Of a stretch of 64,000 nt of DNA, positions 24,838 through 29,848 are shown one piece after another. This stretch comes from Bacteroidota bacterium. Lineage in GTDB: Bacteria > Bacteroidota > Ignavibacteria > UBA10030 > CAVZMI01. The stretch lies in NCBI GenBank assembly GCA_050011775.1, contig JBEKIL010000003.1, positions 154,224-218,223 of the forward strand, read 5' to 3'. Each line of letters starts with the position of its first letter. The first letter of the stretch is position 1. The position numbers were made by a program, and so were the translations under genes. The notes under the pieces are model-generated. The model saw only the letters and a program-made list of their open reading frames with translations. It made no database searches and was not told the DNA's origin.

Positions 24838-26763
24838 ATGAGTAAAATTATCGGAATCGACCTCGGCACCACCAACTCGGTTGTTGCCGTTATGGAAGGA
24901 AACGAACCGGCCGTCATTGCAAATTCCGAAGGTGGACGAACGACTCCATCGGTGGTCGGCTTTGCGAAAAATGGCGAGCGGCTTGTCGGACAGGCTGCAA
25001 AACGTCAGGCTGTTACAAATTCTCAAAACACTGTATTCTCGATCAAGCGTTTCATGGGACGATTTTATGATGAGGTCAATGAAGAAATGAAGCTTGTCCC
25101 TTATAAGGTGGTGCATGGCGATAATAACACGGCACGCGTCCAGATCGGAGACCGGGTATATTCACCACCCGAAGTCAGCGCAATGATTCTGCAGAAGATG
25201 AAACAAACTGCAGAAGATTATTTAGGTCAGAAAGTAACGGAAGCCGTAATTACAGTCCCGGCGTATTTCAACGATGCACAGCGACAGGCGACAAAAGAAG
25301 CGGGAGAAATTGCGGGTTTGAATGTCCGGCGTATCATCAATGAGCCTACAGCAGCCGCACTTGCCTATGGCCTTGATAAAAAACACAAGGATTCAAAAGT
25401 TGCAGTCTTTGACCTCGGCGGCGGCACTTTTGATATATCGATTCTCGAACTTGGTGAAGGAGTTTTCGAGGTAAAATCGACGAATGGCGATACCCATCTC
25501 GGTGGAGATAACTTCGACCAGCGATTGCTCGATTTTGTTGCCGACGAGTTCCAGAAACAGGAAGGGGTCGATCTACGGAAAGATCCAATGTCGCTTCAGC
25601 GTCTTCGCGAAGCATCAGAGAAAGCAAAAATGGAGCTTTCGACAATGATGCAGACCGAAATTAATCTGCCGTTTATTACCGCAACACAGGAAGGTCCAAA
25701 ACATCTGAATATGTCGGTCACACGCGCAAAGTTTGAGCAGCTCGTCGATGATCTTGTGAAGCGATGTATTTCGCCGGTTGAAAAAGCTCTTCATGATGCA
25801 AACCTGCAGCCAAACCAGGTCGATGAAGTGATTCTTGTCGGCGGTATGACCCGTATGCCGCGGGTACAACAACTTGTTAAGGATATTTTTGTGAAAGAAG
25901 GACATAAAGGTGTCAACCCTGATGAAGTAGTAGCTGTCGGTGCTGCAATTCAGGGAGGCGTTCTTGCGGGAGATGTTACGGATGTTCTACTGCTCGATGT
26001 TACACCGCTTTCACTCGGTATTGAAACTCTTGGCGGAGTCTTGACAACGCTCATCACAGCGAACACGACGATCCCGACAAAGAAAAGCGAGATCTTTTCG
26101 ACAGCGTCGGACAGTCAGACATCTGTCGAAATACATATCCTGCAGGGTGAACGTCCGATGGCCGTCGATAACCGTACGCTCGGCCGGTTCCATCTCGATG
26201 GAATTCCACCGGCTCCGCGCGGAATACCTCAGATCGAAGTTGCATTTGATATCGATGCGAACGGTATTTTACATGTATCGGCTAAGGATAAGGGAACAAA
26301 TAAGGAACAGAGCATACGGATTACCTCATCGTCTGGTTTGACGAAGGAAGAAATCGAAAAGATGAAGACTGATGCAACGGCCCATGCCGCTGAAGATAAA
26401 AAGCACAAAGAAGAAGTCGATATGAAAAACCAGGCCGATACGCTGTCGTTTCAGACCGACAGACAATTAAAAGATCTCGGCGATAAAATGACTCCCGAAA
26501 TGAAATCGAAAATCGAGAGCGCAAACAACAGACTCAAAGACGCGATAAAGACGGGAGTCTCGGCTGATATCAAGACTGCAATGGATGGACTCAATGCCGC
26601 CTGGAATGAAGTCTCGACACAAATGTACCAGCAGGCGACTCAACAACAAGCCGCCGGTACTCAACAGAGCGGACAACAGCAGCCGGCCGGCGAGCAAAAG
26701 AAACCCGATGGGAAAGCTGTCGAGGACGCCGACTTTGAAGTTGTAGATGATAAAGATAAATAA
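24838..26763 (+). CDS. dnaK: molecular chaperone DnaK (Hsp70)
   Basis: Canonical Hsp70 signatures ([14 protein letters not shown] ... [12 protein letters not shown] ... [14 protein letters not shown]) and acidic C-terminal tail. Confidence 0.98.
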
Positions 26764-26785: not shown

Positions 26786-26815
26786 AAGGCGAGGAATTCC
26801 ACCTCGCCTTTTCTA
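26786..26815 (+). terminator. rho-independent terminator after dnaK
   Basis: AAGGCGAGG-aattcca-CCTCGCCTT hairpin followed by TTCT. Confidence 0.7.
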
Positions 26816-26847
26816 TAACATATTTTATAATGCTGTTTATAAGTAAA

Positions 26848-27024
26848 AAGGAAAAAGGAAATCCTTCGACTCCCCCTCGACTCTCCGCCTCCGGCGGATC
26901 GCTCGGGGTCGCTCAGGACGAGAATTTAAAAGTAAAAAAGGTAAAATGATTCCAGCAGGCTCGGTAAAAATTTTATCCTTTTTAATTCTCGTCCCGAGCC
27001 CGTCGAGGGATTTACTTTTTCCTT
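26848..27024. repeat. long imperfect palindrome (MITE-like or structured leader) in the dnaK-clpB intergenic region
   Basis: Outer arms AAGGAAAAAGGAAATCCTTCGAC (26848-26870) and GTCGAGGGATTTACTTTTTCCTT (27002-27024) are reverse complements at 21/23 positions. Inner arms GCTCAGGACGAGAATTTAA and TTAATTCTCGTCCCGAGC also pair. The loop is ~50 nt with an extra GC hairpin CCGCC-tcc-GGCGG. Confidence 0.55.
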
Positions 27025-27073
27025 AGAAAAAGCCATATAAATAATCTTCATTTTAGATAAGGATTAAGATCCT

Positions 27074-28387
27074 ATGAATTTTAATAAATTTACAATTAAA
27101 GCGCAGGAAGCTGTTCAAAATGCTCAGGAGAATGCAACCAGTTATGGCAGTCAGTCTATAGAGCCGGAGCATCTCCTTGCTGCGCTTATCCAGGATTCGG
27201 CCGGGATTACTGTTCCGATTCTACAGAAGGTCGGAGCCAATGTGAATTATATCAAAATAAAGATCAATGAAGCGATCGAGAAACTTCCCAAGATCTCGGG
27301 TGCAGAGCTTGGGAACCAGTTTGTCTCACAATCGCTCGGGCAGGTATTCGAAACGGCACTCAAAGAAGCGAACCAGCTTAAAGATGAATATGTCAGTACC
27401 GAACATCTGCTTCTTGGACTTATTGAAGAAAAGCAAAATAAAGGAGCAAAACTCCTGATTGATCAGGGAGTCAAAAAAGAAGATATCTATAAAGTCCTTA
27501 AAGAAATCCGCGGCAGTCAGCGTGTGACAGATCAAAATGCTGAAGATAAATATCAGGCATTAGAGAAATTCGGACGCGATCTGAACGATCTTGCCCGACG
27601 CGGCAAGCTCGACCCGGTCATCGGACGTGATGATGAAATCCGAAGGGTCCTTCAGGTTCTTTCACGGCGTACAAAAAATAACCCGGTCCTAATCGGTGAA
27701 CCCGGCGTTGGAAAAACTGCAATCGCCGAAGGAATTGCTCAGAGAATTGTCAACGGCGATGTGCCGGAGTCTTTACGAACCAAGCGGATTGTTGCGCTCG
27801 ATATGGGAACGCTTGTCGCAGGGACGAGCTTTCGTGGACAATTTGAAGAGCGATTGAAAGCCGTGTTGAACGAGGTTATTCAATCCAATGGCGAAATCAT
27901 TTTGTTCATTGATGAACTTCATACGCTCGTAGGTGCCGGGGCCGCACAGGGAGCTGTCGATGCCGCGAATATGCTAAAACCCGCCCTGGCACGCGGTGAT
28001 CTCCGGGCTATAGGCGCCACAACGATCGATGAATATCGGAAGCATATTGAAAAAGATGCGGCTCTGGAACGCCGGTTCCAGCCGGTTCTTGTCGATGAGC
28101 CGACAGTCGAGGATACGATTTCGATCCTGCGGGGTCTAAAGGAACGGTATGAAATCCACCACGGCGTGCGGATTACCGACGGTGCGATTGTCGCGGCGGC
28201 ACAACTGAGCCATCGGTATATCTCGGATCGATTCCTTCCCGATAAAGCGATAGACCTGATCGATGAAGCCGCCTCAAAACTGCGCATTGAAATCGATTCA
28301 ATGCCGGAAGAACTCGATGAAATTGAGAGAAAAATTAAACAATTGGAAATAGAACGTGAAGCGTTGAAACGCGAATTACAGGCATAA
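27074..28387 (+). CDS. clpB: ClpB disaggregase, N-terminal part (N-domain + NBD1 + first half of M-domain)
   Basis: Clp N repeats, Walker [14 protein letters not shown], Walker B ILFIDELH. Ends inside the coiled-coil M-domain (...[14 protein letters not shown]). Confidence 0.9.
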
Positions 28388-28403
28388 AAGGATGTGAGGA
28401 ACA

Positions 28404-29762
28404 ATGACTGAATTTACGCAAGAAAAAATGCAGGAAACGACAAAAAAGCGACTCGATGAGATTGAAAAAGAAATTGCCGATCTCAACGAAGTCCGCACTC
28501 AGCTGAAAACACACTGGCAGAATGAGAAGAATCTCATTCAATCTATCCGGACAATGAAATCCGAGATCGAGAAAGCGCGAAATGAGGCTGAAAAGAAAGA
28601 ACGCGAAGGCGATCTAGCAAAGGTCGCCGAACTGCGCTATGGAGTGATTGCTAATCTCGAGAAAAAACTGAAAGCTGCTACCCAGGAGCTCGCAGGAGTT
28701 CAGAAAAATCGGAAAATGTTGAAGGAAGAAGTCGATGCCGAGGACGTTGCAGAGATCGTGGCAAAATGGACCGGTATCCCGGTCAGCCGCATGCTCGAAA
28801 GCGAGCGGTCGAAATTACTGCATCTTGAAGAACGGATACACGAGCGGTTGGTCGATCAGGTCGAGGCAGTCCGGGCGGTGAGCGACGCTGTGCGCCGTGC
28901 ACGAGCGGGATTGCAGGACGAGCGAAGACCGATCGGTTCATTTATTTTCCTTGGCTCGACCGGAGTCGGAAAGACCGAACTCGCCCGCGCACTCGCCGAG
29001 TCGCTCTTCAACGATGAAAATGCAATGGTGCGCATTGATATGAGCGAGTATATGGAGAAATTCTCCGTATCACGTCTCATCGGTGCGCCGCCCGGTTATG
29101 TCGGCTACGAGGAAGGCGGACAGCTTACCGAGTCAGTCCGACGGAAACCATATTCCGTTGTGCTGCTTGATGAAATCGAGAAAGCGCATCCGGAAGTATT
29201 CAACGTGCTTCTTCAAGTACTTGATGAAGGCCGGTTGACCGACAGCAAAGGGCGAACGGTTAATTTCCGGAATACTATCATCATCATGACCTCGAACCTC
29301 GGATCGAATATCATCATGGAGTGGACGCAGAACATGACCGATGTAAACCGCAATGAGGTCATGGAGGCTGTCAGGGTTAAACTATTCGACCTGCTTAAGC
29401 AGACAATTCGTCCGGAGTTCCTTAATCGTGTCGATGAAATCATCATGTTCAAAACCCTTACACGCGACGATATAGTTCAGATTGTCGATTTACAGCTCCG
29501 TCATGTGCAGGTATTGGTGAAAGCAAAGAATATCACGCTCAATTTCACCGATTCGGCAAAAACGTGGCTGGCAAAGGCGGGATACGATTTGCAGTTTGGC
29601 GCCCGTCCGCTTAAACGGATAATTCAAAAACATGTTGTGAATAAATTATCTGAAAAAATTCTTGCCGGAGAAATTGCCGAAGGGAATATGATCTCTGTCG
29701 ACGTCGGCACGGATGGATCGTTTCGATTTATTCCTGTCGTCAAAGTTAAGGATGTTCAATAA
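28404..29762 (+). CDS. clpB: ClpB disaggregase, C-terminal part (second half of M-domain + NBD2 + C-terminal domain)
   Basis: Continues the ClpB alignment exactly where the upstream ORF stops (...[10 protein letters not shown]... ; NBD2 Walker [16 protein letters not shown], Walker [12 protein letters not shown], sensor/arginine region). It is in the +1 frame relative to the first part and is preceded by GAGGA-n3-ATG. Confidence 0.9.
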
Positions 29763-29785: not shown

Positions 29786-29822
29786 AAGGGAGCCCCTTAA
29801 TGGAGGCTCCCTTCCTGTTTTC
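29786..29822. terminator. bidirectional hairpin terminator between clpB and the convergent OMP gene
   Basis: AAGGGAGCC-ccttaatgga-GGCTCCCTT stem-loop followed by CCTGTTTTCGG. Confidence 0.6.
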
Positions 29823-29848
29823 GGTGTCACTTACAGCTTATGATGGTA

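Follow-up and report, generated by a model that had tools for sequence, protein, structure and literature searches.

A clpB gene carried as two open reading frames and cut at the tip of the M-domain: a probable gene fission in a Bacteroidota bacterium

Results

The window analyzed here, the only part of the genome considered, is a 64-kb stretch of DNA (64,000 nucleotides, nt) from a Bacteroidota bacterium (GTDB lineage Bacteria; Bacteroidota; Ignavibacteria; UBA10030; CAVZMI01), taken from contig JBEKIL010000003.1 of assembly GCA_050011775.1 (positions 154,224 to 218,223 of the forward strand); all positions below are counted from its first letter. It carries clpB as two consecutive open reading frames (ORFs) on the plus strand, both assigned by profile matches and alignment. 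The first, clpB-N (ORF1, 27074..28387), encodes 437 amino acids (aa; 48.5 kDa), and the second, clpB-C (ORF2, 28404..29762), encodes 452 aa (51.6 kDa). The TAA stop codon of clpB-N occupies 28385..28387 on the plus strand and is followed by an intercistronic spacer of 16 nt on the same strand (28388..28403, read from the sequence).

The ORF1 product matches the Pfam families Clp_N (PF02861, in two stretches), AAA and AAA_lid_9 and carries helix 1 of the M-domain at its C-terminal end. Its motifs include Walker A GEPGVGKT (residue 208), the pore loop SFRG (252), Walker B ILFIDE (276) and the arginines of ERRF (332). The ORF2 product starts with M-domain helices 2-4, which are followed by AAA-2 and the D2-small domain (Pfam AAA_2 and ClpB_D2-small); it has the motif-2 tyrosine within LRYG (77), Walker A GSTGVGKT (184), the pore loop GYVG (231), Walker B VVLLDE (252) and GARP (399). 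Neither ORF1 nor ORF2 contains the IG[FL] or LGF motif of a ClpP-docking loop, and it is the missing IGF/IGL loop that distinguishes ClpB from ClpA and ClpC. The pore-loop aromatic residue of AAA-1 is phenylalanine (SFRG, residues 252-255, 27827-27838), as opposed to tyrosine in Escherichia coli (KYRG, Y251); since the phenylalanine is common to intact Ignavibacteria-type relatives (P0011, P0028), it is a trait of the lineage and unlinked to the split.

The match to ClpB is continuous through both products. TIGR03346, the NCBIfam ClpB equivalog model, aligns residues 6-435 of ORF1 with profile positions 1-428 and residues 9-438 of ORF2 with positions 428-848, at 691.4 and 626.9 bits, respectively (1318 when summed). 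The cut-off of this model for a single ClpB is 1232 bits, so each half falls short of what is expected of one chain (about 850-880 aa and at least 1232 bits) and only the sum passes. For both halves the ClpB models score above those for ClpA, ClpV, ClpK and ClpG. The two ORFs cover residues 2-432 and 432-851 of E. coli ClpB and residues 1-423 and 424-849 of Thermus thermophilus ClpB. A preliminary description of this DNA, made from its letters, had reported two ORFs with a continuous ClpB match and nothing missing, and all three alignments bear this out: no ClpB residue is absent, and 11 are extra with respect to E. coli (19 versus 8 between the same anchors). The N-domain with its two Clp_N repeats and both AAA+ modules are present, and the alignment runs through the M-domain across the two ORFs, LRYG included. 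Judged by its sequence, then, the pair is a ClpB by every criterion except that of a single chain. The window shares the domain order and all functional motifs of canonical ClpB (E. coli, PDB 4D2Q/6OAX; T. thermophilus, 1QVR), which is however one chain, whereas here there are two polypeptides. Disaggregation dependent on DnaK is a prediction, on which the adjacency of dnaK and the retained motif-2 tyrosine bear. Protein P0001 is identical to the ORF2 product; a search of a representative library returned a mixture of partial and full-length proteins and was uninformative.

The junction between the two ORFs reads TAA-aaggatgt-GAGGA-aca-ATG, and the frame of ORF2 is +1 with respect to that of ORF1. 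Each of the three frames ends in a stop here: the TAA at 28385-87 in the frame of ORF1, a TGA at 28395-97 in that of ORF2 and a TGA at 28405-07 in the third. The junction letters, the frame and the three stops given earlier agreed exactly when the sequence was re-read, and the earlier argument that a single indel cannot fuse the ORFs also holds because all three frames are closed; an in-frame fusion would require the removal of about 19 nt. The spacer contains a GAGGA resembling a Shine-Dalgarno (SD) box at 28396-28400, 3 nt 5' of the ORF2 ATG, and an upstream AAGGA at 28388-28392. SD-type 4-mers precede 19 of the 42 long ORFs in the window, against a background of 11%. As such boxes are common in the window, the GAGGA before ORF2 is a plausible ribosome-binding site. 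A mini-ORF, ATG-TGA, is located at 28392-28397 right after the AAGGA, and its TGA is the one that closes the ORF2 frame.

A pattern scan revealed neither a plus-strand terminator nor a sigma-70-like promoter between the ORFs. The RNA at the junction forms no significant structure when compared with shuffled sequences (z = -0.75 and -0.47). The pair thus has the anatomy of coupled genes, namely the same strand, a 16-nt gap, a GAGGA near the ATG and no intervening terminator, and from this anatomy we infer that ORF1 and ORF2 may be translationally coupled.

The position of the cut follows from the alignments. Residue E434 of ORF1 aligns with E432 of E. coli ClpB and with residue 423 of T. thermophilus ClpB, and ORF1 terminates three residues past this equivalent of E432; residues 8-9 of ORF2 align with E. 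coli residues 432-433. The cut therefore corresponds to E432|S433. The preliminary description had located it at the tip of the M-domain coiled coil. This location stands and can be refined: as aligned, it is specifically the motif-1 tip of the M-domain that is cut, inside a clade-specific nine-residue expansion of the loop. Counted from the E432 equivalent to the L of KKRL, the loop has 19 residues in the window and 8 in E. coli, 5 or 8 in 76 of 77 control ClpB proteins, and 8 in most close relatives. It has 17 residues in a set of intact relatives, for example RELSAEYADEADRQAIKTHILEIE and RELTSNYATDVDKKATQKKLEDIE. In the group of the window (the proteins that share its split), ORF1 ends in RELQA and ORF2 begins with MTEFTQE or MTEYTQE, which is similar to SAEYADE of the intact expanded loop. 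The simplest history would be that the expanded loop came first and that the break between the A and the E of a SAEY-type motif came after; about 25 nt, made up of a stop codon, the spacer and ATG-ACT, would now stand at the break. A read-through of ORF1 in its own frame (..NDKKATR up to the next stop) was considered as a remnant of the intact loop and was rejected as coincidence, because the true homology sits in the frame of ORF2. Three stand-alone N-terminal halves from other lineages (P0219, P0227 and P0215) end deeper in the loop (...REAVGEYE or ...RELGTLEV before the stop) and keep the 'EY', and the exact break point therefore varies between lineages.

The tip of motif 1 contacts motif 2 of the neighboring subunit in the ClpB ring. 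E432 sits at one end of the M-domain coiled coil, in motif 1, and the K431/E432 contact keeps E. coli ClpB repressed; the E432A substitution yields a repressed ClpB, and deletion of motif 1 yields a hyperactive and toxic ClpB that retains disaggregation (Carroni et al. 2014, PMC4023160). Given the alignment with E432, the break in the chain of the window falls on the contact by which the ring stays repressed and head-to-tail. The same few residues are concerned in these mutants and in the window, but the mutants carry point or deletion changes in one intact chain, whereas in the window the chain is both broken and lengthened at that site.

The split is reproducible and is kept in relatives. 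In the Logan assembly of run SRR7028477 (L179) the junction is identical base for base. A different strain (L081, a 524-kb contig with synonymous divergence, dS, of about 0.2) has the same junction with a 16-nt spacer and halves of 437 and 451 aa that are 98.6% (N-half) and 97% (C-half) identical in amino acids to those of the window. A more distant relative (L082, a 1.8-Mb contig) has halves of 437 and 453 aa with 88% and 79% identity, respectively. Its spacer is 22 nt long and unrelated in sequence to that of the window, yet it has AGGAG 6 nt before the ATG. The TAA stop of clpB-N is the same in L179 and L081 and is replaced by TGA at the equivalent place in L082; the mini-ORF is shared by the window, L179 and L081 and is absent from L082. 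The JGI contig that encodes P0122 has the same layout with a gap of 14 nt by gene calls, and the order dnaK - clpB-N - clpB-C is kept in this contig, L081 and L082. The comparison with related clpB genes proposed in the preliminary description thus recovers the same split in L081 and L082. Of the readings it offered, that of two polypeptides, the second having its own SD box and start codon, is the one borne out, and relatives keep the split, the SD-like box and the ATG.

These observations bear on whether the split is an assembly or sequencing artefact and clpB is really one uninterrupted gene, an option that had been left open. Broken clpB genes that look like errors or simple frameshifts do exist in public data (L094, L118 and the pair P0128/P0066). 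However, clpB is uninterrupted in 70 of 73 members of a control set of diverse species genomes, a set made of genome-contig matches to ORF2 in which universal ClpB motifs dominated and the best match had 63% identity, with no close relative among them. The junction is identical in an independent Logan assembly, the split is kept across relatives from a dS of 0.2 to saturation, and a site with three closed frames and a clean stop, SD box and ATG lies in a window with no broken genes otherwise, its other overlapping ORF pairs being distinct genes and not frameshifts. Independent assemblies and conservation together effectively exclude the artefact, which we regard as extremely improbable.

Some of the genes nearby in the compared contigs are themselves interrupted. 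The dnaK of L081 (L081:500-2427) is called in two pieces of 361 and 266 aa and is intact in the window and in L082, and an RNase R-like gene (L091:1948-3811) is in two pieces of 390 and 216 aa and is intact in L092; these are probably assembly frameshifts, in contrast to the conserved split of clpB. In the Kryptonium-like L094 (ENA ERZ27245533 k141_590, L094:3950-4040), which has the same expanded loop, overlapping ORFs of 452 and 444 aa without a proper start arise through a single extra A (A7 versus A6) in ...GAG AAA AAA CTT.... For this interruption, a mistake in the assembly, a frameshift of recent origin and slippage-prone sequence where fissions occur are all conceivable. In two control metagenome-assembled genomes (MAGs) of Prevotella and Bacteroidales (L018 and L033), only some 300 aa of open frame precede the C-half match, giving total ORFs of 737 and 726 aa, which suggests a ClpB lacking the N-domain or an interruption farther upstream.

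Both halves are under strong purifying selection. When the window is compared with L081, the N-half has a ratio of nonsynonymous to synonymous substitution rates (dN/dS) of 0.030 and the C-half one of 0.055. Between the window and L082, the proportion of synonymous differences (pS) is about 0.81, that is, saturated, and that of nonsynonymous differences (pN) is 0.08 for the N-half, 0.14 for the C-half and 0.075 for dnaK. Interrupted frames are the usual signature of a decaying pseudogene, and a recent inactivation of clpB would explain them. A gene in decay is nevertheless hard to reconcile with these low ratios, with conservation that persists past synonymous saturation at the level of dnaK, with intact catalytic motifs, and with a start codon and SD box kept despite the turnover of the spacer. 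We give this explanation next to no credence.

Another explanation offered earlier was recoding, in which a programmed frameshift, hop or readthrough would yield a full-length ClpB of about 100 kDa. Superficially the locus recalls prfB, in that ORF2 is in the +1 frame (window, L081 and L082) and a box of SD type lies close to the stop. A +1 shift at the TAA, however, meets the TGA at 28395 and a -1 shift the TGA at 28405; alternative frames close within 10-20 nt, unlike in frameshifts of the prfB/dnaX type. In addition, a slippery motif is absent, the junction RNA folds no better than shuffled sequences, and the spacer varies in sequence and length (16 and 22 nt, and 14 nt by gene calls). Recoding is also impossible in those other lineages that have the halves at separate loci. 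We consider recoding very unlikely.

Such separate, stand-alone halves proved to be abundant. Counts of homologues refer to the best 120 matches per query. With the N-half as query, 76 of the 120 were classed as proteins ending at most 8 residues from the loop. They have 436-441 aa, and three of them belong to the group of the window and one is a truncation at a contig end. The N-half matches sit on contigs of up to 3.2 Mb labeled Kapabacteria, Kapaibacterium, Chlorobi or Ignavibacteriae. The C-halves (440-453 aa) begin about 10-20 residues before the conserved RL-EIE, or about 5 in Chlorobiaceae. One is encoded by a Chloroherpetonaceae MAG (L001), and with this protein as query 117 of the best 120 matches were proteins of 436-458 aa, among them those of Chloroherpeton thalassium ATCC 35110 (P0295), Prosthecochloris aestuarii DSM 271 and Chlorobium luteolum DSM 273. 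A metagenome scan with the head of ORF2 gave, among the 80 loci listed, 58 intact genes and 12 clean stand-alone C-halves, and no member of the window group was among the matches listed. The earlier statement that natural ClpB isoforms do not come from a split is contradicted by the abundance of stand-alone halves in Chlorobia and related MAGs.

The stand-alone halves, C-halves in Chlorobia and both kinds in MAGs labeled Kapabacteria, Chlorobi or Ignavibacteria, share the M-domain-tip break of the window, with N-halves of about 438 aa and C-halves of about 440-447 aa. They differ in their surroundings: there is no partner within 2.5-10 kb and each half has a conserved neighborhood of its own, whereas in the window the halves are 16 nt apart. 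No partner half was found by tblastn within 2.5-5 kb of the unlinked halves, and in the complete genome of C. thalassium the C-half has no N-half within 10 kb. Among the loci examined, halves side by side were found only in the group of the window. The stand-alone N-half genes (L087-L090) come after ispF and a PAS histidine kinase gene; by gene calls, the kinase stop and the start of the N-half overlap by 4 nt in L087-L089, and the start comes 36 nt after the stop in L090. The C-half genes precede a conserved macB/ABC/phoU block or adjoin plsY and gpsA. In the loci L083-L086 and L091-L093, the genes after the C-half are an unknown one of 278 aa, macB/ftsX, two ABC ATPase genes and phoU.

We asked whether there has been one fission or several with neighbor-joining trees, one per half with 100 bootstraps, which, being neighbor-joining only, are not final. 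In the N-half tree, the clade of unlinked N-halves is monophyletic in 99 of 100 replicates and the window group in 98; the window group joins the unlinked forms in 0/100 and the intact Ignavibacteria-type ClpB in 77/100. In the C-half tree, the window group is monophyletic in all 100 replicates, again joins the unlinked forms in none, and groups with Kryptonium-like intact proteins in 42. The unlinked forms are together monophyletic in only 2/100. As the window group joins the unlinked forms in 0/100 for both halves, its fission looks independent. There look to have been at least two fissions, and on these trees and gene orders that of the window looks the younger, being still operon-linked. 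The lineage of the window looks like an early, adjacent stage of a process that ends elsewhere in unlinked genes.

Directly upstream of clpB-N lies dnaK (24838..26763, plus strand), which encodes the Hsp70 partner. It is followed by a hairpin, GGCGAGG-aattcca-CCTCGCC then TTTTCT (26788..26814, plus strand), which was read directly and missed by the pattern scan; this is likely a dnaK terminator, to go by its form, which would separate dnaK from a unit of clpB-N and clpB-C. A terminator of dnaK at this position therefore suggests that this unit has a promoter of its own, in 26815-27070. Another terminator-like hairpin with a T-rich tail follows clpB-C (29802..29825, plus strand; found by the consensus scan only) and is the probable end of the two-gene transcription unit. 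No CIRCE (controlling inverted repeat of chaperone expression) element and no Rfam family was found in the window.

Discussion

We consider it probable that the locus represents a genuine and evolutionarily fixed fission of clpB, the halves of which likely reassemble into a working ClpB. On this proposal, clpB-N and clpB-C would be transcribed as one unit from a promoter downstream of the dnaK terminator. Ribosomes would stop at the end of ORF1 and initiate at ORF2 16 nt farther on; a gap of this size favors coupled or near-coupled initiation and a roughly equal output of the 48.5-kDa and 51.6-kDa products. Helix 1 at the end of the N-half would pair in antiparallel fashion with helix 2 at the start of the C-half and so restore the coiled coil of motif 1. 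The segment of the C-half that follows the M-domain would, to judge from its homology to solved ClpB structures, pack onto AAA-1 and tie the halves together. Six of these heterodimers may then assemble into a ClpB ring of the normal two-tier kind and cooperate with the neighboring DnaK. The pair would thus amount to a ClpB of two subunits encoded in one operon.

There are precedents for parts of this proposal. According to Beinker et al. (2005, J Biol Chem 280:37965, pmid 16162497), as cited in PMC4239642, a covalent link between both nucleotide-binding domains (NBDs) of ClpB is not needed for chaperone activity. As far as it is summarized there, that split of the T. thermophilus protein resembles our proposal in that non-covalent pieces are active, and differs in being artificial and not a natural gene arrangement. 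In that construct the cut reportedly separated the M-domain from NBD2 and did not fall on the motif-1 tip. Mycobacterium tuberculosis, too, has more than one ClpB product per locus: besides the full-length ClpB, an N-terminally truncated form arises from an internal start (PMC6168691). In that account, such isoforms share one frame and both keep AAA-1, the M-domain and AAA-2, whereas the products in the window are complementary halves.

Several points weigh against the fission and reassembly proposed here. The distance from the SD box to the ATG, 3-4 nt, is below the usual optimum, and the 14-nt spacer of the JGI contig is taken from gene-call coordinates. Co-assembly of the halves is deduced from genes and from homology to solved structures. 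The 64 kb covered leave space for a second, intact clpB elsewhere in the genome. In the unlinked lineages, N- and C-halves are known separately and not paired in one genome. Finally, the halves could have drifted to separate roles.

The last point leads to the rival that concedes a real fission, but in which the halves act separately or form a ClpB with altered regulation. The cut falls at the repressing K431/E432 contact, where the mutants described above change the activity of the ring in either direction. NBD1-M of T. thermophilus expressed separately is an active ATPase (PMC4239642), and in other lineages the halves have settled in different conserved neighborhoods. In the lineage of the window, however, the halves are adjacent behind dnaK with a gap of 14-22 nt, conservation of helices 1 and 2 and of the motif-2 tyrosine matches that in intact ClpB, and both halves evolve at a rate similar to that of dnaK. 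Such a change of function is, in our judgment, unlikely, and we favor reassembly into a working ClpB.

The public names of the stand-alone halves are generic in the sources searched, such as 'AAA family ATPase' and 'ATPase AAA-2 domain protein', probably because each half falls under the ClpB cut-off. For Chlorobaculum tepidum, Swiss-Prot presumably holds two entries, 'Probable chaperone protein ClpB 1' and 'ClpB 2' (CLPB1_CHLTE and CLPB2_CHLTE). Chlorobium phaeobacteroides was stated to be the sole Chlorobi species with ClpB (Gupta and Lorenzini 2007, PMC1887533). The apparent absence of ClpB from the other Chlorobi probably reflects the split, the halves having been overlooked. No description of a natural split ClpB was found in the literature searched; for years, public annotation has carried the halves with generic names, and the split has apparently passed without published comment.

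Conclusions

ClpB/Hsp104 is a textbook tandem AAA+ machine, and the tip of its M-domain (K431/E432 in E. coli) is a switch by which the ring stays repressed up to the arrival of Hsp70. In the window a natural break in the chain falls exactly on this switch, and the broken form is kept under strong selection. Whole lineages appear to encode a two-piece ClpB, which makes them a natural test of covalent continuity and of tip geometry in hexamer assembly, repression and coupling to Hsp70. The fission can be seen at two stages, with the halves adjacent and an SD box between them in the window and with no nearby partner elsewhere. As the stand-alone form occurs in cultured green sulfur bacteria, the question can be taken to the bench. 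The split is also a trap for annotation: each half scores below the cut-off of the ClpB model, and genomes can consequently look as if they had no ClpB.

A further possibility is that, among the Chlorobia, Ignavibacteria and Kapabacteria of the FCB (Fibrobacteres, Chlorobi and Bacteroidetes) group, ClpB has been cut at the motif-1 tip more than once and that such cuts are adaptive and not neutral. We hold this to be a doubtful but not far-fetched idea. If it is true, a free and lengthened tip could alter the repressing head-to-tail contact between M-domains and give a disaggregase whose set-point or dependence on Hsp70 is changed. Unlinked halves could in turn allow the two ATPase tiers to be regulated separately, and the window would represent the first, still operon-linked stage of that route.

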